The notes: generated by a model from the letters alone, not told the origin. A stretch of DNA of 64,000 nucleotides from an uncultured Candidatus Saccharibacteria bacterium (GCA_964639285.1 CAZXCI010000001.1:42343-106342), one strand, 5' to 3'; counted from the first letter of the stretch, positions 26,142 to 38,203 are shown. A program made the numbers and translations.

Positions 26142-27548
26142 ATGAAAAAGAAAATGGCGTTTCTGTTATTGGCGGCCTTCGCCGCCGTGGTTTTTGCTGG
26201 TTGTGCTCCGAAGGTTGAGGGAGTTTTCTATGACTCTCAAGGGGGCGTTGTCTATCAAGGTAAAGTTGCCTCTGGGCAACGGATCATGGTTGGCCAAGGA
26301 GGTTGGGCTTCCCTTCATATCTCTGGCTGTACCAGCCGGGGGGATGTCACTGTCGTTGCTGAAAAAGGGTGTTGTGGCCCGGGCACGACGGTAGTCATCG
26401 CCGGAGGTGGCCTCGCGGTGGTCTCAGTGGCTGTCTGGTCGATGGTGGATTTTCTTCTCGACCAAGACAACGGCTTCGATTACGTCGTTGGGCCGGTGTT
26501 CGGGGAGACCACTGTCTATGTCGGAGACGATTTTGTCTTTACTCTTCTTGTCGACGACGGCATTGAAGGCGAAGGCGAAGTTCCTGTCGAAGGTGAACCC
26601 GAAGGCGAGGGTGAATTTATCCCTCTGTCGGTGGAAATCTTGGCCCCGGTCAATGGGCGAGTTTTCAATGCCGGCGATGTCGCTACTGTCCGGGTTTTGC
26701 CGAATGGTGATCCGTCCTCGACGCCTTTGCGTCTTGTCGTCCGGAACGCTGAACTCGAAACCCGGGTGGCCGAGAATGTTGCCCCTGGAGTAGAGAAGAC
26801 GCTTGCGTTCACTCTTAATTTAGTTGGGACAGGAGCTTTCACGGCCTACCTTGAAGACAAGGATGGCGCTCATGTGACCACCTCGGTGACCTATTCGGTG
26901 ATCGTGCCTATCGAAGGCGAGCCTGTCGTCGAAGGTGAAGATGAAGGCGAACCGGTTGAAGGTGAGGGCGAGGGTTGTGCCGTTGTGCCGGACCTTTCGG
27001 GCCTGACCGAAAATCAAGCCCGAGCGGTCATTTCCTCGACCTGTCTGGTCGTCGGGACCGTTCTGTTCGTCGATGATTCTAACGTTCCGGCTGGCTATGT
27101 GGTCAGCTGGAATCCCACTGGGACGGTTTCCTGCGGGACGGCGATCAACCTCGTCATCTCGACCGGCCCTGTCATTGAAGGCGAAGGCGAAGCTCCCGTT
27201 GAGGGCGAATCTGAAGGCGAGGGCGAAGCCATCGAAGGTGAAGGCGAGTTCATCCCTCTGTCGGTAGAAATTCTCGCTCCTGCCAGTGGGCAAGTCTTCA
27301 ATATCGGAGACACGGTGACGGTCAGGGTCTTACCAAATGGCGATCCTTCTCTACGACCTTTGCGTCTTGTTGTCCGGAATGCGGAGCTCACGACTTGGAC
27401 GGTGGAAGATGTCACCCCTGGGGTGGAGGCAACTTTCACTTTTACAGTCGGGCTTTTTGGGCCGGGAGCTTTCACTGGTTATGTCGAGGATAGGAACGGG
27501 TTGTCTGTCACGACATATTGTCCCTATTCAGTGGCCATCCCCGAGTAA
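26142..27548 (+). CDS. GC-rich lipoprotein with PASTA domain and internally duplicated ~105-aa domain
   Basis: Lipobox LLAAFAAVVFAGC. EGE-rich linkers. PASTA-like VPDLSGLTENQARAVISSTCLVVGTV...VVSWNPTGTVSCGTAINLVISTGP. Two paralogous domains (EGEGEFIPLSVEILAP..VRVLPNGDPS..LRLVVRNAEL..) at about 26601-26925 and 27232-27545. Confidence 0.6.
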   Translation: MKKKMAFLLLAAFAAVVFAGCAPKVEGVFYDSQGGVVYQGKVASGQRIMVGQGGWASLHISGCTSRGDVTVVAEKGCCGPGTTVVIAGGGLAVVSVAVWSMVDFLLDQDNGFDYVVGPVFGETTVYVGDDFVFTLLVDDGIEGEGEVPVEGEPEGEGEFIPLSVEILAPVNGRVFNAGDVATVRVLPNGDPSSTPLRLVVRNAELETRVAENVAPGVEKTLAFTLNLVGTGAFTAYLEDKDGAHVTTSVTYSVIVPIEGEPVVEGEDEGEPVEGEGEGCAVVPDLSGLTENQARAVISSTCLVVGTVLFVDDSNVPAGYVVSWNPTGTVSCGTAINLVISTGPVIEGEGEAPVEGESEGEGEAIEGEGEFIPLSVEILAPASGQVFNIGDTVTVRVLPNGDPSLRPLRLVVRNAELTTWTVEDVTPGVEATFTFTVGLFGPGAFTGYVEDRNGLSVTTYCPYSVAIPE

Positions 27549-30964: not shown

Positions 30965-33430
30965 ATGGAAAACTCGCGAGAGGATAAATCTGCGGAAAAT
31001 AAAGAAGGCCTCAATTTCTATGAGGTAGCTCAAAGACGAAGAGATCTAAGACAGGAATTAAAGAGAGTTAGGCCCGAACTCGATAACCAGGATCCGCTCC
31101 TTGATCGGGCTTATAAGGAACCACTGGCTGAGGTTGAGGAACAAGCCTCTCGTTTCAAAATCGCTGATTTCAAAAAGCCAGAAAATTCCTCTGGTTTGAG
31201 AGGGGCCATAGATTTTCTTAAAGGACAAAAAGCTTCTTACGAAAAGTCTTTGGAATCAGAAACTTCTCCGGCTATTGCCCCAGAATTAGCCGAGGTTCTC
31301 AGGATGAAAGAGATTGTCAAAAGATATAAAGAATTTCGTCTTCGTCGAATGCTGGAAATTCTTGATCGAAGCATCTCGCCCACCACCAGAAAAAGGAATG
31401 AGTCAATTTTGCGTCTAATCACAGAGGAAATCAAAAATAGTGAAGAAGCCCTACAAAAAATGGATCTTCCTCTCCTTCGCCAAGCGGAGCTTCTGGGCTA
31501 TAAAGAAGACTTGGCGCGCAGTGGTCATATTTGTATTACTCCCAGTGTGGCCAAAGATTTGGAGGCGATCGGGGATCGAATGCTTACGGGCAAACCGATT
31601 CTCCTTCATGGACCAACGGGGACGGGTAAAACTTCCTTGGCTCGTTTTGCCACAGCTCATTTTATGGGGAAGGATCCGGAGATGGTCTTTTGTAATCCGC
31701 AAACGAAACAATCAGATGTCTACGGTAAAACCGGACTTCGCGCTGTTCCTGGTGGGGAGGGAGCGATTGAAACAGTCGAGATATATGGTCCGCTAGCTCG
31801 AGCGATGATTGAAGGAAAGCCTGTTATCTTCGACGAGTTCACCGCTTTGCCAAAAGAGCAAATGGTCTTCATCAAGGGAATTTTTAATGCCAAAATCGGG
31901 GACAAAATAAATATTAGTGGGAATGGGGTTGTTGAAATCAAGCCTGGTTTCCAAATGATTTTCACGGCGAATTTGAAATCAGAGAAAAATCCAGAGAGAC
32001 AGGATCTTCCGCCAGAAATTGCTCGCGAGTTTGAACAAAATAATCTAGAAATTAAATACAATGACCCGGCCGAGACTTATGACATCATCCTCTCACGTCT
32101 CTTGGGAAAAGATGATTCCTTAGAACTCTCTTTCTTTGATTTGAATACTACTTTGCCTAAATTATGTGAGGCTATGTCTGAAATCCAAGAGTCTTACACC
32201 AACGAAACAGATAAAGAAGTAGCTCGTCGAGCGGGAGCAATGGATGCTTCTGGTAAGGTTTATTCTTTGAAAAAATTTGTGATGACTCAGGGCTCGATTG
32301 AGGCCATCTTATCTTCGTGGTTGGTTGAGAAGCAAACGGGTAAAAAGGAGAGAAGTTTTTCGGAATTCTTAGATGAACGTCTGAAGACGGCTTTAACTTT
32401 CAAAGAGTACCCTAAAGAGGATAGAATTTTGGCGGCTAAAATCTTAGCCTCTAAGGGTTTCTTATTGACACTCACGGCCAAAGATCTTGATTTGCCGGAG
32501 GATATATTTAGTTTTAATACCATCAGGCAAATGCGCGGAGAAGATGCGACTGAAGAATTAAAAAATAAATCAGGAGACGTTAAACGGCTTAATTTGCGCG
32601 AAGTGGCCGAATTGGATCCCTTCAACAAGAGAGCTAACATGCTAAGACAACAGGCGGAAGATCTCCTCGGCCTCGGTGATCGAGAAGGGGATCCTTTTTT
32701 GAGTGATTTTGACAGAGCGTTTGGGGGAGTTTTTGCTGGAGAGAAAAAGGGTATTATTTCCACCCCCTTCACCTACACCAACCCCGACACTAACCAGGTG
32801 GAACTCCAAGAAACCATCACTCTTGATCTCGAAGCTAAACTCCAATCAACTCTCGCTTTCTACCAATCCATCAACCTTGATATTCCCCCTGACTTTGAAG
32901 ACCAAATCCGTGACATCTGGTCTCGTCATCAAGACGAGATTGAACAAGCCATTGCTACCCAAGGCTTCAATGACCTTCTCCTCCTTCCCCCCACCCCTAA
33001 TCTCCCAGACTTAGCAAACAAAACCGAGATGGAACAAGGCTACTGGACTTCCGACAACTTCACCGAAGGTGGCGGTTTCGCCCAAGCCAAGAGCCAAAAC
33101 ACTAACCAAACCCGTCTTCTCTTAGTCCACCACACCCAAAATCTCCAAGACCACCCTCTCCTCAAGCAAACTCTCAATATCAAGGGCCAAGACGTTAACT
33201 TAAGTGAAGCCCTCACCTTAGAAGACTACCTTCTCTTCCAGAGACAATATTTTGCTCAAAACAACAAACACTTAGATGAAGACGGCTGGACCTGGCTAGC
33301 CACTCATTCCGGCCCTCGCCTGGTCTGCGCCCGCTGGTTTCCTGGCGATCACCGGCTCCGCGTCGATGCGGGTGACCTCACCAGCCAGGATGGCTATCTC
33401 GGTGTCCGCCCCACCCGCTGTTTCTTGTGA
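30965..33430 (+). CDS. DGR target protein 1: AAA+ (MoxR/CobS-like, AAA_5) ATPase fused to C-terminal C-type-lectin-fold variable domain
   Basis: Walker A ILLHGPTGTGKTSLARFA, Walker B PVIFDEFTAL. The C-terminal 225 aa are identical to the tail of ORF 37193-38155 and end in VR1 (GPRLVCARWFPGDHRLRVDAGDLTSQDGYLGVRPTRCF). Confidence 0.75.
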   Translation: MENSREDKSAENKEGLNFYEVAQRRRDLRQELKRVRPELDNQDPLLDRAYKEPLAEVEEQASRFKIADFKKPENSSGLRGAIDFLKGQKASYEKSLESETSPAIAPELAEVLRMKEIVKRYKEFRLRRMLEILDRSISPTTRKRNESILRLITEEIKNSEEALQKMDLPLLRQAELLGYKEDLARSGHICITPSVAKDLEAIGDRMLTGKPILLHGPTGTGKTSLARFATAHFMGKDPEMVFCNPQTKQSDVYGKTGLRAVPGGEGAIETVEIYGPLARAMIEGKPVIFDEFTALPKEQMVFIKGIFNAKIGDKINISGNGVVEIKPGFQMIFTANLKSEKNPERQDLPPEIAREFEQNNLEIKYNDPAETYDIILSRLLGKDDSLELSFFDLNTTLPKLCEAMSEIQESYTNETDKEVARRAGAMDASGKVYSLKKFVMTQGSIEAILSSWLVEKQTGKKERSFSEFLDERLKTALTFKEYPKEDRILAAKILASKGFLLTLTAKDLDLPEDIFSFNTIRQMRGEDATEELKNKSGDVKRLNLREVAELDPFNKRANMLRQQAEDLLGLGDREGDPFLSDFDRAFGGVFAGEKKGIISTPFTYTNPDTNQVELQETITLDLEAKLQSTLAFYQSINLDIPPDFEDQIRDIWSRHQDEIEQAIATQGFNDLLLLPPTPNLPDLANKTEMEQGYWTSDNFTEGGGFAQAKSQNTNQTRLLLVHHTQNLQDHPLLKQTLNIKGQDVNLSEALTLEDYLLFQRQYFAQNNKHLDEDGWTWLATHSGPRLVCARWFPGDHRLRVDAGDLTSQDGYLGVRPTRCFL

Positions 33431-33478
33431 GGTTAGGTTGTATTTTTGATTTTGGTTATTGTTTGAGATTTTTGGTTT
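32765..33478 (+). repeat. 714-bp direct repeat copy A (C-terminal variable domain + VR + 3' flank)
   Basis: Identical to 37490-38203 where compared: the protein tail is identical over 225 aa, alternative-frame translations are identical, and the VR and 55 bp downstream are identical. Confidence 0.85.
33311..33423 (+). other. DGR variable repeat VR1
   Basis: 113-bp homology to TR (33702-33814). All 18 mismatches fall at positions where TR has adenine. GC-rich 3' end ggtgtccgccccacccgctgttt (IMH-like). Confidence 0.85.
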
Positions 33479-33701
33479 ATTTTTTAAAAATTCTTCGGTG
33501 AGTATGATTGATCTGACTTAGGGTCGGTCTGCCGAAGCGCTCAATAAAACTGAAGCTGGATTTGTTTTGAGAGCAAATTCATAAAGTCTTGATCTGTTAG
33601 AGTGGAAATAAAAGAAACAGCAGTTTTGCCTTGGGGAAGTGCCCTGATAAACGAAGTATTGTTTCCAAGAGAGCGGGGATAAAGCAAAACTAATGTGGGA
33701 C

Positions 33702-33814
33702 GGCCCTCGCCTGGTCAACGCCAACTGGAATCCTGACAATCACCAGCTCAACGTCAATGCGAATGACCTCACCAACCAGAATAGCAATCTCGGTGTCCGC
33801 CCCACCCGCTGTTT
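33702..33814 (+). other. DGR template repeat (TR)
   Basis: Encodes an AAY-rich template (GPRLVNANWNPDNHQLNVNANDLTNQNSNLGVRPTRCF). The listed ORF 33693-33998 is this template, not a gene. Confidence 0.85.
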
Positions 33815-34189
33815 TTATGCCAAGTTTCGAGAATATTTTATCCAACCTTGGGTCATCCGACCTATTTCTTGGAGTTTACTCTCAATCTCTAAATATTGCT
33901 TAGTGTCTATGATTTGGCAATTTAGAGAAAGGCGAAAAAGGATTTTGAGCAGTTCCACTTTAGTATTGGCTCGGAGGAGGACTTTTTCTTTTTCGTAGCG
34001 GGAGGATTGATTAGCTAGAGTAAAAATTTCCATTGATTCCAAAAGGGAATTTTCTAGTTTTTCTCCTAGGGTGTAACGCTCGTGTTTGGGAAATTTGAAG
34101 ATTAATTTGTGCGTAATCTCGTATAAGACGAGAAGTTTGATAACAATTGGTATCTCTAATTTTGAATAATCACAATGGCCGTTGTCCAT
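33815..34189 (-). CDS. avd: Avd-like accessory variability determinant (four-helix-bundle protein, TIGR02436-like)
   Basis: 124 aa. DYSKLEIPIVIKLL...FPKHERYTLGEKLENSLLE...ANTKVELLKILFRLSLNCQIIDTKQYLEIESKLQEIGRMTQGWIK matches the bAvd/IVS-protein pattern. On the opposite strand to RT, with a 15-bp overlap of their 5' ends. Confidence 0.65.
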   Translation of the reverse strand: MDNGHCDYSKLEIPIVIKLLVLYEITHKLIFKFPKHERYTLGEKLENSLLESMEIFTLANQSSRYEKEKVLLRANTKVELLKILFRLSLNCQIIDTKQYLEIESKLQEIGRMTQGWIKYSRNLA

Positions 34190-35155
34190 AAAAGTTATGA
34201 CGAATTATTTAGCCTTTATAATCTTTTTCGTGCCTGGAGGAAGTTTCGGCGGGGCAAGACCAGAAAAAAAGATATTCTGGATTACGAATTGCATTTGGAA
34301 GACAACCTCTTTAATTTATATGAAGCTTTATGCCAGGATATTTACGAACATTCAGCTTATCAATATTTTCAAATTTTTGACAATAAAAAGAGGGATATCT
34401 CTAAAGCGGAGGTGAGAGATAGAATTGTCCACCAAATTATTTATGATTATATACTTGGTATCTTTGAACCAGACTTTATATCCGATTCTTATGCTTCCAG
34501 ATTAAATAAAGGATCATACAAAGCTCTCGGGGCTTTTCAGTACTTTATCAAACTTAATCATTACTCTCAAAAAACTTGCTTTGTTCTGAAGTGCGATGTT
34601 AAAAAATATTTTGATAACATTAGTCACGAGATCCTTCTCCGTCTGATTAAAGAAAGAGTTGTTGATGATAAAGTATTTTTTATTATTCAAAAAATAATAA
34701 AAAGTTATTCTTCCGGTGATAATCGAGGTATTCCTCTTGGCAATATCACGAGCCAGATTTTTGCTAACATTTACCTCAATCAACTGGATCATTATGTTAA
34801 AAAAGAATTAGGTTGCCGTTTTTATGTTAGGTACAACGATGATTTTGTCATTCTTTCAGAATCTTCCCGTTGACTGGAAGAAATCCGAAGCAAAATAATT
34901 GCTTTTTCAGAAGAAGAGTTATCTCTAAATATTCCTCTTGGAAAAACAAGTTTGAGGAAAATAACTTGGGGCGTGGATTTTCTCGGATTTACTGTCCTGC
35001 CGGGGGCGATTCTCTTAAGAGACAAGACGAAAAGTAAGATGTTTGCCAATATTAGCTCACGTAATATCCATTCATATTTTGGCATTTTAAAGCACTGTAA
35101 TTCTTATAACCTGAGGCGGAAGATACTCTCAATGGATAAACTGGACAGAGTTTGA
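34175..35155 (+). CDS. DGR reverse transcriptase (single frame interrupted by one in-frame TGA at 34871-34873)
   Basis: N-terminal SYDELFSLYNLFRAWRKFRRGK. RT motif IPLGNITSQIFANIYLNQLDHYV. YVRYNDDFVIL (YxDD). After the TGA the same frame continues into the thumb region ...WGVDFLGFTV... ending at 35155. Total 326 codons. Confidence 0.85.
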
Positions 35156-35167
35156 TAAAATATTGGC

Positions 35168-37171
35168 ATGGAAGAGCCTAATGATATCGAGACAAAAAAT
35201 GGAGAGGATATATCCCCAGAGACAGAAAATGCCCACGCTGAGGCGGTGGCCTTGGTGGAGAAAAATCGCGACTTTTTTGAACATTACGCTAAGGGGAAGA
35301 TTCAAATTGAACCGGCACCGGCGGGGCTGGGGACTTTTGCCTTTGATCTAGAAAAAAATACGATTTATCTCAACTCGCTTTTTTTTCAAAAAATGGGGTT
35401 GCCCGAAGAGAAAACAATTTTTGCTACTCTCCACGAGATCGAGCACTTTATGGAAAAAATCCAAATTCTCTCGGAGGAAGGCGGGCAAAGAACTTTTACC
35501 AAATTTCTCTCCCGTCTTAAGGCCTCGCGTGCTTTCTCTTTGATAGATAATTGTGTGGCTGATATCAGGCAGAATCGAGCGGTTATCTCAAAAACCAATA
35601 GAGGGATGGCTGAGCTGGAGACGACGATGTACCAGGAAGATCTTTTTGCGGAAACCGATTTTCTTGCCCGACCTCGACATATTCAATTTAGTGAAGCGCT
35701 TTTGCGGGAATCGCGAGTGCCGAGTGAGAAGTGCCAAGTGGCGCCCGAAGTGAGACAGGCGCTGGAAGAAATAGCCAAAGTTTCCAATCTGTTGGAAGTG
35801 ATGACCAATCCGGAGACTCCGATGTCTTTACGCTTGAAATTGCAAGACAAATTTATCTGGCCCAAGGTGCAAGCTCTTTTGGATCAAGACATTGAAGAGA
35901 AGAAAAAACAAAAGGAAGAAGATAAAAAGAAAAAAGGAGGCGCCGATACTCTCGATGGAGCGGAAGGGGCGGAAGGCGGTGCGGGCGATGGGGGAGCCGG
36001 CGAAAATGATAATAAAGAAAGAGGGAAAAAAGGAGGAGATAACAAAGCTCAAACAGAAGACGGGGAAGAGAGTCAGGGAGGAGAAGGAGAGAGTAAGGCG
36101 GGTGGCGAAAATGATGAAGAAGAAACTGATCCCAACAAAATTTTTGCAAAGGATTATGAGGAGGCCGAGAGCAAATTCCCTGAGGCCGTTCCGTTAGAGA
36201 AAATTGAGGAGGCCTTCAAAAAATGGCAAGAGGCGCAAAAAAACCAAAATACCCCCGACCAGGCTGATGAAGCCTACGCCCAAAATCTTGGCGTGAAGAA
36301 GGAAGCCTTACAAAATTATCGTCGACTAGTTGAGTCCCTGGAGAAAATTGTGAATCCTGAAACTGATATGCCCGTGATTGAAGAATTGCGGAATCTTTTT
36401 AATCGGATAATCTCCAAGAGACTTAAATTGGCCCAAGCTCCTAAATACCCGGTATCGGAGGGGGACGAGTTAGTTGACCCGGCGCAATTGGTGGCCGACG
36501 TTAAAGCGGGGAATTTTGAGCCCAAGGTCTGGGAAGATGTAGAGATCAAGGAAAAGAAGGGTGACAAATTCGGCGAAGTGGAGATCACTCTTATCTGTGA
36601 CCGTTCTGGTTCGATGAATGGGGTTAAAGCGGAGGAACAAAGAAAGTCGGCAGTCTTAGTGATGGAGGCACTGAAAGAATTTGCCGAACTTTGCGAGCAG
36701 GAAAAAATAAATATTGATAAACCTTTGGAAGTTAGATCAGAGATTTACAGCTTTGCCAGTAGTGAGGATGACGACAAACCACTGAAGAAGATGTCCCCGG
36801 AGCTAGGCGAGGTCGAGCGGATAAATGTTTTAGAGAAGCTCAAAGAGATAACTGGTTCCACCACCGATTTTCGTTGTTTGGAAGCGATTGCCGCTAATCT
36901 CTCAGAAGAAATCAGGATCAAATTAAAAATTGCGGAATTGAAAAAGATCGTGATTGTCTTCACTGATGGCGAGAGCGACGATCCGGTTCGAACCCAAGTG
37001 AATCTTAAGAATTTACGCGACAACGGCGTTTTTGTTATCGGTGTGGGCATCACTTCCGCTGGTCAATCAGTTTTATCAACCTATGCGCCTGAAGCTCAAG
37101 TGGTGGAAGATGTCTCTCGTCTGCCCCTTGTTTTGGCCGAGCTTCTCAAGGAGCATTTACATAATCTCTAA
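35168..37171 (+). CDS. vWA-domain protein with N-terminal HExxH region and acidic low-complexity linker (CobT-like partner of the AAA ATPase)
   Basis: HEIEHF (HExxH). A long E/K/G/D-rich linker (KKKQKEEDKKKKGGADTLDGAEGAEGG...). MIDAS DxSxS in EITLICDRSGSMNG. Von Willebrand A fold at the C-terminus. Confidence 0.7.
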   Translation: MEEPNDIETKNGEDISPETENAHAEAVALVEKNRDFFEHYAKGKIQIEPAPAGLGTFAFDLEKNTIYLNSLFFQKMGLPEEKTIFATLHEIEHFMEKIQILSEEGGQRTFTKFLSRLKASRAFSLIDNCVADIRQNRAVISKTNRGMAELETTMYQEDLFAETDFLARPRHIQFSEALLRESRVPSEKCQVAPEVRQALEEIAKVSNLLEVMTNPETPMSLRLKLQDKFIWPKVQALLDQDIEEKKKQKEEDKKKKGGADTLDGAEGAEGGAGDGGAGENDNKERGKKGGDNKAQTEDGEESQGGEGESKAGGENDEEETDPNKIFAKDYEEAESKFPEAVPLEKIEEAFKKWQEAQKNQNTPDQADEAYAQNLGVKKEALQNYRRLVESLEKIVNPETDMPVIEELRNLFNRIISKRLKLAQAPKYPVSEGDELVDPAQLVADVKAGNFEPKVWEDVEIKEKKGDKFGEVEITLICDRSGSMNGVKAEEQRKSAVLVMEALKEFAELCEQEKINIDKPLEVRSEIYSFASSEDDDKPLKKMSPELGEVERINVLEKLKEITGSTTDFRCLEAIAANLSEEIRIKLKIAELKKIVIVFTDGESDDPVRTQVNLKNLRDNGVFVIGVGITSAGQSVLSTYAPEAQVVEDVSRLPLVLAELLKEHLHNL

Positions 37172-37192
37172 TCTCGTAATATAATACCCCAT

Positions 37193-38155
37193 ATGTCCCC
37201 CGAATCCCTCTCTCCCCACCCCGACCAAACCCAAGAGGAACTCCGTCCTCTCTATCAACAAAGACTCAATTCTCTCAAAGATCCTCTCCATCAAGGCCGT
37301 GATCAATATGCCCAAGACCTAAAGAACGGTCTCTTTGATGATCAAGAGGGTGAAGAACCAGGCCAAGGAGAGAAACGCCAAGAGGAAGCTCAACAAAAGC
37401 TTCTTAAACTCCTCGCCCAAGCCCAGAAACTCAAAGCTCTCCTCGACAGCGGAGAACCTCTTCCTCAATTATCTCCCGTCATCACCACTCCCTTCACCTA
37501 CACCAACCCCGACACTAACCAGGTGGAACTCCAAGAAACCATCACTCTTGATCTCGAAGCTAAACTCCAATCAACTCTCGCTTTCTACCAATCCATCAAC
37601 CTTGATATTCCCCCTGACTTTGAAGACCAAATCCGTGACATCTGGTCTCGTCATCAAGACGAGATTGAACAAGCCATTGCTACCCAAGGCTTCAATGACC
37701 TTCTCCTCCTTCCCCCCACCCCTAATCTCCCAGACTTAGCAAACAAAACCGAGATGGAACAAGGCTACTGGACTTCCGACAACTTCACCGAAGGTGGCGG
37801 TTTCGCCCAAGCCAAGAGCCAAAACACTAACCAAACCCGTCTTCTCTTAGTCCACCACACCCAAAATCTCCAAGACCACCCTCTCCTCAAGCAAACTCTC
37901 AATATCAAGGGCCAAGACGTTAACTTAAGTGAAGCCCTCACCTTAGAAGACTACCTTCTCTTCCAGAGACAATATTTTGCTCAAAACAACAAACACTTAG
38001 ATGAAGACGGCTGGACCTGGCTAGCCACTCATTCCGGCCCTCGCCTGGTCTGCGCCCGCTGGTTTCCTGGCGATCACCGGCTCCGCGTCGATGCGGGTGA
38101 CCTCACCAGCCAGGATGGCTATCTCGGTGTCCGCCCCACCCGCTGTTTCTTGTGA
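37193..38155 (+). CDS. DGR target protein 2: standalone C-type-lectin-fold variable protein
   Basis: 320 aa. Unique roughly 95-aa N-terminus, then the same 225-aa domain as target 1 ending in an identical VR. TATAAT at 37180-37185 only 7 nt upstream of the ATG. Confidence 0.7.
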   Translation: MSPESLSPHPDQTQEELRPLYQQRLNSLKDPLHQGRDQYAQDLKNGLFDDQEGEEPGQGEKRQEEAQQKLLKLLAQAQKLKALLDSGEPLPQLSPVITTPFTYTNPDTNQVELQETITLDLEAKLQSTLAFYQSINLDIPPDFEDQIRDIWSRHQDEIEQAIATQGFNDLLLLPPTPNLPDLANKTEMEQGYWTSDNFTEGGGFAQAKSQNTNQTRLLLVHHTQNLQDHPLLKQTLNIKGQDVNLSEALTLEDYLLFQRQYFAQNNKHLDEDGWTWLATHSGPRLVCARWFPGDHRLRVDAGDLTSQDGYLGVRPTRCFL

Positions 38156-38203
38156 GGTTAGGTTGTATTTTTGATTTTGGTTATTGTTTGAGATTTTTGG
38201 TTT
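37490..38203 (+). repeat. 714-bp direct repeat copy B
   Basis: See copy A (32765-33478). Confidence 0.85.
38036..38148 (+). other. DGR variable repeat VR2 (identical to VR1)
   Basis: Same 113 bp as VR1. Matches TR except at TR adenines. Confidence 0.8.

Follow-up and report, generated by a model that had tools for sequence, protein, structure and literature searches.

A diversity-generating retroelement (DGR) is located within a 64,000-nucleotide stretch of DNA (hereafter the window; positions are counted from its first letter) from an uncultured Candidatus Saccharibacteria bacterium (GCA_964639285.1 CAZXCI010000001.1:42343-106342). The element combines a template repeat (TR), two variable repeats (VR1 and VR2) at the 3′ ends of two target genes, the accessory gene avd and a reverse transcriptase (RT) gene (Table 1). 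It is a genuine DGR carried by a chromosome of the Patescibacteria (candidate phyla radiation, CPR). Upstream of the TR lies a conserved structured RNA domain, next to a strand that covaries with the 3′ end of the template. Taken together, the data are very probably best explained by a Patescibacteria DGR of the TR-(avd)-RT type, whose cDNA synthesis would be primed from the RNA 5′ of the template and which is now probably silent or active at a low level only.

The initial annotation of this region had proposed a TR/VR pair with strictly adenine-specific mismatches. We compared the two repeats without gaps over 114 nt (33310-33423 and 33701-33814), 28 of which are adenines in the TR. All 18 mismatches fall on TR adenines, a distribution with a probability of 3.3e-14 by chance (hypergeometric), and the 13 codon changes listed in that annotation were all correct on recount. 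As it had also described, both repeats end in the same GC-rich tract, GGTGTCCGCCCCACCCGCTGTTT, and diverge directly afterwards, with a C following the VR and a T following the TR. This tract resembles an initiation of mutagenic homing (IMH) sequence and shows no difference between TR and VR as far as GCTGTTT. The adenine-specific pattern was also found in more than 20 related loci. Substitution of adenines by any base in the TR codons never yields a stop, and the 18 variable codons correspond to ∼4e16 theoretical protein variants. In both targets the VR is located at the C-terminus of a CLec/FGE-fold domain. When read in frame, the TR forms part of a 101-aa open reading frame (ORF; MWDGPRLVNANWNPDNHQLNVNAN..., 33693-33998 on the plus strand and 396-701 in locus L084). 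A gene caller reported this ORF in one public assembly, probably wrongly.

The RT domain with a YxDD box that had been placed close to the TR was readily recognized (Pfam RVT_1, E 1.4e-16; box YNDD); its gene starts 360 nt past the TR and its motif 4 is of the DGR type, [ILV]GxxxSQ, in the form LGNITSQ. The gap between TR and RT is filled by avd on the minus strand, whose product scored 61 bits with PF22296 (cut-off 40) and 75 bits with NCBIfam NF033474 (E 4.7e-21, cut-off 80). The starts of avd (minus) and RT (plus) overlap head-to-head by 15 nt (34175-34189), as is also the case in L086, and the avd and RT promoters would therefore each lie inside the other gene. A transcript running from TR to RT would be antisense through avd. 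Homologues occur in Patescibacteria metagenome-assembled genomes (MAGs), in agreement with the CPR-like origin suggested previously: using an intact relative (P0001) as query, the nearest RTs in species-representative genomes belong to such MAGs and are ∼66% identical to it.

The DGR reading is thus upheld by adenine-only mismatches, RT motifs, the presence of Avd and a related strain with the same TR but a different VR (see below). The element had moreover been called complete. All the protein parts are indeed present, but the RT frame, which had been taken as open from 34175 to 35155, is broken by a TGA in a genome where TGA is a stop. The minus-strand avd, the second target with VR2, this TGA and the RNA domain 5′ of the TR had all been missed.

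The spacer between target gene 1 and the TR is 278 nt long, non-coding and partly conserved across loci down to ∼42% RT identity. RNAalifold analysis of 8, 14 and 16 loci gave a structured domain ending shortly before the TR and comprising the helices P1, P2 and P3 and a variable hairpin (Table 1). With 14 loci, 95.1% of the cells are compatible with pairing, compared to 81.8% in shuffled alignments (none of 500 reached the observed value) and 36-56% in slid controls. Eighteen pairs have changed on both sides, versus 1-5 in the slid controls, and G-U pairs point to the plus strand as the one that folds. A covariance model built on the P2/P3 part, R1, was then used for searches. It gave one match per locus in 47 loci (19 of 87 in a first set, 28 of 80 among new metagenome loci), always just 5′ of the TR and on the RT strand; no matches were observed elsewhere at E<=1 in the first set (∼1 Mb) or at E<=0.1 in the second (0.24 Mb). 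Rfam 15 gave no match at E<=1 over 33200-35300 with permissive thresholds. Folded as a single sequence, the TR region is not significant (z -1.1).

With an alignment over the whole region, RNAalifold also predicted de novo a long-range helix between the strand AAACAGC and the 3′ end of the TR. Pairing in this helix reaches 89.1%, compared to 35-54% in slid controls, and five of its eight pairs have changed on both sides. The strand pairs with the TR tail of its own locus in 13 of 18 cases but with tails of other loci in only 9 of 262; of 40 distinct loci, 22 form a duplex of at least 7 bp with their own TR tail, compared to 9 of the 1250 cross pairs. The covarying versions are AAACAGC/GCTGTTT, AAAACTGC/GCAGTTTT, AAACTAC/GTAGTTT, AATAGC/GCTATT, ACAACGA/TCGTTGT and TAGAC/GTCTA, and L016 and L008, two loci that had been held out, agree with the prediction. 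The base that follows the strand, A33622, is conserved. Because AAACAGC pairs with the last 7 nt of the TR and this pairing covaries across loci, the upstream helix suggests a retron-like, permuted version of the template:primer duplex of Bordetella.

A distant subclade (L018, L019, L023 and L027), with RTs only 36-40% identical, has the same topology built from unrelated sequences and is missed by R1. In this subclade ACAACGA pairs with the TR tail TCGTTGT and is followed by a GTTCCTTG/CAAGGAAC helix; an adjacent P2 is also kept.

For the DGR of Bordetella, cis-priming of the cDNA takes place from A56 of the spacer (Sp), at the end of a 7-bp TR:Sp duplex, and synthesis is stopped by a duplex between distal segments (preprint 10.1101/2023.10.23.563531). 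By analogy with this phage element, a plus-strand RNA including the TR would be copied by RT-Avd with misincorporation opposite adenines, and the cDNA would then replace the 3′ end of two cytoplasmic targets, an AAA+ ATPase-CLec fusion and a stand-alone paralogue of ∼320 aa. Judging from the covariation, the RNA scaffold would sit 5′ of the TR, unlike in Bordetella where it is 3′. A helix of 7-8 bp would connect the final 7 nt of the TR with AAACAGC (33615-33621) and stack on P2. The first template nucleotide would be C33807, with C33621 or A33622 as the primer, and P2 would mark the point where synthesis stops; the start site would thus be found beside the helix at the stop point, giving a retron-like topology. 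The order along the RNA would be primer strand, stems, template and template tail.

We propose that the TR-(avd)-RT DGRs of Patescibacteria use such a circularly permuted, retron-like RNA, with scaffold and cis-primer 5′ of the template and with one junction setting both start and stop, and we consider the chances that this is correct to be evenly balanced. The survey of other DGRs, CPR included, in the Bordetella study reached only from 40 nt before the TR to 100 nt after it, and modelled the priming elements as downstream of the TR (preprint 10.1101/2023.10.23.563531).

The 5′ RNA could also be real without being a primer, and act as a scaffold binding Avd or RT, as a cDNA stop element or as a leader for TR transcription, which we regard as possible though rather doubtful. 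Priming would then take place elsewhere, using the 3′ end of a nicked RNA, the target DNA or a site located downstream, and we hold these other primers to be just as tentative. The Bordetella RNA around the TR indeed provides Avd-binding, RT-binding and stop elements as well (preprint 10.1101/2023.10.23.563531). The end of P2, 10 nt before the TR, would suit a stop duplex, and the internal mismatch present in 16 of 40 loci (see below) weakens a strict role as primer. On the other hand, the covarying helix uses precisely the final 7-8 nt over which TR and VR agree, and its length and its position relative to the template are the same as those of the Bordetella TR:Sp duplex. Moreover, no consistent complement to the TR tail was found within 300 nt downstream of the TR, and no conserved structure was found on that side, where RNAalifold gave no consensus pairs in the region antisense to avd; a structured spacer similar to that of Bordetella was therefore rejected there.

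Other observations weigh against the cis-primer model or restrict it. In the 16 mismatched loci, which have the TR tail GCCGTT[TC], a single A.C or U.C mismatch persists inside the helix, while the outer pairs covary. The first pair of P2 (A-U) is invariant, so covariation is silent on whether A33622 is paired or free. No inverted repeat or cruciform was found following the VRs, which limits the RNA model. Finally, the 5′ RNA is apparently undescribed: we found no description of it in Rfam 15 or in the literature searched, a result that cannot prove novelty. The GCCGTT[TC] subgroup includes L009, L010, L011, L022, L006, L093-L103 and L106, and its helix shows the mismatch without exception.

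The history of the element was followed in two co-occurring strains drawn from Logan assemblies of one run series. The sequence retrieved for strain A (SRR8925806), corresponding to 33449-36873, matches the window with 100% identity. Strain B (SRR8925803, SRR8925766 and SRR8925719, mutually identical; L001/L084/L085) is 95% identical to the window. Its TR shows no differences, whereas its VR1 differs from the TR at 16 sites, 13 of them adenines and 3 of them non-adenine positions in the GC-rich end, and from the VR of the window at 20 sites. Because the VR of strain B has changed mainly at TR-adenine sites while the TR has not changed, the comparison gives direct evidence, at the level of sequence, that retrohoming has acted in the A/B lineage. 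The divergence between A and B (33302-37514 compared to L001) is a mosaic in which blocks with 0% divergence alternate with blocks at 13-20%, 150-800 bp long and with sharp borders. This pattern indicates frequent homologous recombination within the Patescibacteria population. A scan of JGI metagenomes with a VR/TR pattern in which N stood for each adenine of the TR gave 0 matches and no further strains.

Both strains carry the TGA in the RT gene. At this codon the closest intact relatives, P0001 (88% identical) and P0002 (86%), have TGG (Trp), and the 2708 RT homologues are typically 326-328 aa long and uninterrupted. An alternative code, in which TGA would be read as Gly or Trp, was rejected: the code of the window is standard, with ∼50 long ORFs without internal TGA and 10 other genes that end in TGA, several of them in ATGA-type overlaps. 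Selenocysteine was rejected as well, since relatives have Trp and not Cys at this position and no significant fold lies downstream (z -1.5 and -0.1 for a stimulatory RNA structure 3′ of the TGA). The 93 codons past the TGA are open in both strains with a dN/dS of 0.11 (21 synonymous and 11 non-synonymous changes; binomial P 1e-7). This value cannot prove translation past the TGA because the TGA belongs to a block without differences, directly followed by a divergent one; with such mosaic blocks, import by recombination is an equal explanation.

The TGA could nevertheless be a selected leaky stop, at which near-cognate tRNA-Trp would restore Trp and supply a low dose of full-length RT, so that the DGR would be active but throttled. 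Relatives with TGG at codon 233, the presence of the same TGA in two mosaic strains and four samples, and the open frame with low dN/dS beyond it are all in favour, as is the C that follows the TGA, this being the weakest termination context for a fourth base. Decoding of UGA as Trp at low frequency has been documented in bacteria (PMC7918605). However, the identical block that includes the TGA extends from 34600 to 34880, and a donor with an intact RT could explain the low dN/dS of the block that follows. In addition, no stimulatory RNA structure follows the TGA, VR1 equals VR2 and the VR is stable across samples. We hold a leaky TGA acting as a throttle on hypermutation to be unlikely, and a weaker reading than the permuted RNA.

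VR2 emerged when the window was searched with a TR pattern allowing any base (N) at each adenine. Its identity to VR1 is part of an exact 714-bp duplication covering the whole paralogous CLec module and its 3′ flank. In relatives, the same paralogous target modules are only 73-82% identical and their VRs differ. The 3′ flank of VR1 in strain B is unlike that of the window up to 33486, near the edge of the duplication. Because of these two features we read the 714-bp identity as a probable recent gene conversion, the direction of which would be from target 2 to target 1; no diversification of VR1 or VR2 would have occurred since.

An assembly artefact, in which a single VR consensus was placed in both copies, is in our judgement a distinctly unlikely cause of the match between VR1 and VR2. 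An exact repeat of 714 bp is hard for short reads, and the independent evidence covers its borders rather than its interior. Yet independent Logan contigs break at both repeat borders, as they would at a true repeat with the same borders as in the window: the SRR8925806 contig has one end 30 nt inside the border (33449), and its length of 4071 bp puts the other at ∼37519, ∼30 nt into the second copy. The strain B contig also runs through VR1 and its 3′ flank, so in strain B the copies differ.

An ordinary duplication with differences on adenines by chance, lying beside a retron or group II intron RT without any relation to it, has nothing in its favour except the generic RVT_1 match (the NCBIfam group II intron RT model gave 147 bits, far under its cut-off of 300) and is of negligible probability, being refuted by the adenine bias (P 3e-14), Avd, the different VR next to an identical TR in strain B and the recurrence of the pattern in more than 20 related loci.

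Present activity has to be weighed separately. Three observations argue against it: the in-frame TGA of the RT, in a window where TGA is the stop of 10 other genes; the exact equality of VR1 and VR2; and the VR consensus of strain B, which is unchanged between two samples. For these reasons there is no sign of ongoing diversification in the assemblies compared. Because of the change from TGG to TGA at codon 233 and of the recently homogenised VRs, the element is probably silent now, or limited to a low level of UGA read-through by tRNA-Trp.

A T-rich element follows the stop codon of both VR-containing genes and is absent after the TR (Table 1). In the relatives, ∼55 nt past each VR stop are near-identical within a genome even where the coding paralogues are 73-82% identical (L086, 7272-7327 and 11956-12017; L088; L006), and different genomes share the motif TTAG.TTGTA..TTGA. 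The T-rich element may be a candidate cis-acting or recognition element on the target side, in place of the missing inverted repeat. Inverted repeats after the VR were reported in only 34% of DGRs (Wu et al., PMC5758913).

Table 1. Features of the DGR cassette in the window
Feature	Position	Strand	Description
Target gene 1	30965..33430	+	821 aa; N-terminal MoxR-like AAA_5 ATPase, C-terminal CLec/FGE-fold module of ∼220 aa with VR1
714-bp exact duplication	32765..33478 = 37490-38203	+	whole paralogous CLec module and 48 nt of 3′ flank
VR1	33311..33423	+	last 37 codons of target gene 1; 18 A-to-N differences from TR
VR1, 3′ 23 nt	33401-33423	+	GC-rich IMH-like tract, same as in TR
T-rich element after VR stop	33431..33478 (copy 38156-38203)	+	identical after VR1 and VR2
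Structured RNA domain	33493..33691	+	predicted by RNAalifold
P1 hairpin	33493-33500/33530-33537 and 33506-33512/33523-33529	+	
Variable hairpin	about 33560-33580	+	
Candidate primer strand AAACAGC	33615..33621	+	complement of the last 7 nt of TR (GCTGTTT, 33808-33814); directly 5′ of P2
P2	33622-33632/33681-33691	+	ends 10 nt before TR
P3	33633-33636/33642-33645	+	
TR	33702..33814	+	28 adenines, mostly AAY codons; identical in strain B (L001/L084)
avd	33815..34189	-	124 aa; fills TR-RT gap; PF22296 bAvd E 1.7e-16
DGR reverse transcriptase	34175..35155	+	326 codons; LGNITSQ aa 188-194, YNDD aa 220-223; codon 233 = TGA
In-frame TGA	34871..34873	+	context CGT TGA CTG; same TGA in strain B
VWA-domain protein	35168..37171	+	667 aa; intact MIDAS motif DRSGS at aa 478; conserved cassette member
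Target gene 2	37193..38155	+	320 aa; N-terminal helical hairpin, then CLec/FGE-fold module with VR2
VR2	38036..38148	+	100% identical to VR1; in target gene 2

The genes are arranged in the order AAA_5-CLec target, TR, avd (minus strand), RT, VWA and ∼320-aa CLec target, and the cassette lies between gatB and gap, among housekeeping genes. Relatives with 65-71% RT identity have the same order, with an AAA_5 protein of 810-822 aa carrying a VR at its 3′ end and one or more targets of ∼320 aa; they possess 2-4 different VRs each, with adenine-specific mismatches. In particular, L086 and L088 encode this VR-bearing AAA_5 protein, and the avd arrangement is the same in L086-L089. The ATPase motifs of target 1 are intact (Walker A GPTGTGKT at aa 216 and Walker B VIFDE at aa 287), and neither a transmembrane (TM) segment nor a signal peptide was found in this protein. 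The system formed by the AAA_5 target, the VWA protein and the 320-aa target is predicted to be cytoplasmic, because no hydrophobic segment was found in any of the three. PADLOC gave no significant match with the cassette proteins other than the RT (best E 1.7e-4). The N-terminal hairpin of the ∼320-aa target family (37193-37490 in target 2, aa ∼38-102) showed weak profile matches to Vps4 MIT domains (best E 0.0012). Elsewhere in the window, a PASTA-domain ORF at 26142-27548 lies in a GC-rich patch (0.51-0.54, compared to ∼0.42 elsewhere) and contains internal direct repeats (26600-26795 and 27233-27428, 74% identical and 633 nt apart).

At the gene level, the closest known systems are the DGRs already catalogued in CPR. 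For their CPR set, Wu et al. 2018 described the architecture B3, TR-(avd)-RT, together with targets of UVR4/category g1 in which the Midasin AAA motif is recognized (PMC5758913). In Dore et al. 2024, the CLec-AAA ATPase fusion is given as the commonest target of CPR DGRs, with reference to Paul et al. 2017 (PMC10907252). According to Roux et al. 2021, CPR DGRs form a separate clade and their targets are without TM domains (PMC8144416). The window element shares with them the host group, the gene order with reversed avd, the AAA-fused target, several targets per TR and the lack of TM segment and signal peptide (PMC5758913, PMC8144416, PMC10907252). It differs by the nonsense codon in the RT and the homogenised VRs, and otherwise by nothing essential at the gene level; the fixed VWA gene and the 5′ RNA domain were without mention in the published descriptions searched. 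The element is thus typical of the catalogued CPR clade, except for the RT stop, the identical VRs and the conserved 5′ RNA pairing with the 3′ end of the template. We tentatively equate the clade of the window with DGR clade 2 of Roux et al. 2021. Most CPR RTs are described as forming this clade 2, which is distinct from the clade-5 DGRs that carry MoxR/vWA systems (PMC10907252).

Such MoxR/vWA-linked DGRs are known from other phyla (Dore et al. 2024, PMC10907252), and similar MoxR/vWA conflict systems were described by Kaur et al. 2020 (PMC7159879). Like the VMAP ternary conflict systems of cyanobacteria and gammaproteobacteria, the cassette brings together a MoxR AAA+ protein, a vWA protein and a DGR-diversified CLec/FGS domain, all predicted to be cytoplasmic. 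Unlike in those systems, it is the ATPase and a small stand-alone protein, and not the vWA protein, that bear the variable domain. The cassette showed neither a VMAP protein nor a peptidase, TIR or other effector domain, no dedicated VMAP profile having been used.

With the Bordetella BPP-1 DGR (mtd-avd-TR-brt), whose RNA comprises the 3′ end of avd, the TR and Sp, the element has in common the adenine-specific transfer, Avd and RT, a CLec target whose VR is C-terminal, repeats ending in a GC-rich IMH-like tract and a duplex of ∼7 bp in which the TR 3′ end pairs with a different segment of its own RNA. It is distinguished by avd being on the other strand, between TR and RT, and by IMH and IMH* sequences that are identical to the end of the repeat, with no inverted repeat after the VR. 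The partner strand and the scaffold are ∼85-210 nt upstream of the TR and not in the downstream spacer; a downstream primer spacer of the Bordetella type (Sp 3′ of the TR) is thus not present, the complement of the TR tail being upstream. Its targets are predicted to be cytoplasmic, whereas that of Bordetella is a phage tail fibre. Retron msr-msd RNA is similar in its topology alone: the template is paired at its 3′ end with a strand lying 5′ of it, stems lie between, and a putative priming nucleotide is located at the end of that 5′ strand. The RT, however, is of DGR type and dependent on Avd, the template is protein-coding and serves mutagenic homing and not the production of multicopy single-stranded DNA (msDNA), and 2′-OH priming is only putative. 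The element is not a retron, as no Rfam retron RNA matched and the retron RT model gave only 47 bits against a cut-off of 235.

As a DGR, the element adds little, since CPR DGRs with AAA-fused lectin-fold targets and TR-(avd)-RT order were already catalogued, and it is ordinary for its clade. The part worth following is the 5′ RNA with its covarying template helix. It provides a concrete, testable model of how cDNA synthesis may start and stop in the largest cellular DGR clade, that of CPR, for which we know of no experimental system. A covariance model for the 5′ RNA would also improve the annotation of TRs. The change from TGG to TGA shared by the two strains, together with the homogenised VRs, offers a natural case in which to ask whether hypermutation can be switched off or throttled in the wild. 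Finally, the invariable cassette of MoxR-AAA+ protein, VWA protein and cytoplasmic target supports the idea that the DGRs of CPR diversify an intracellular, ATP-driven sensor and not a surface adhesin.

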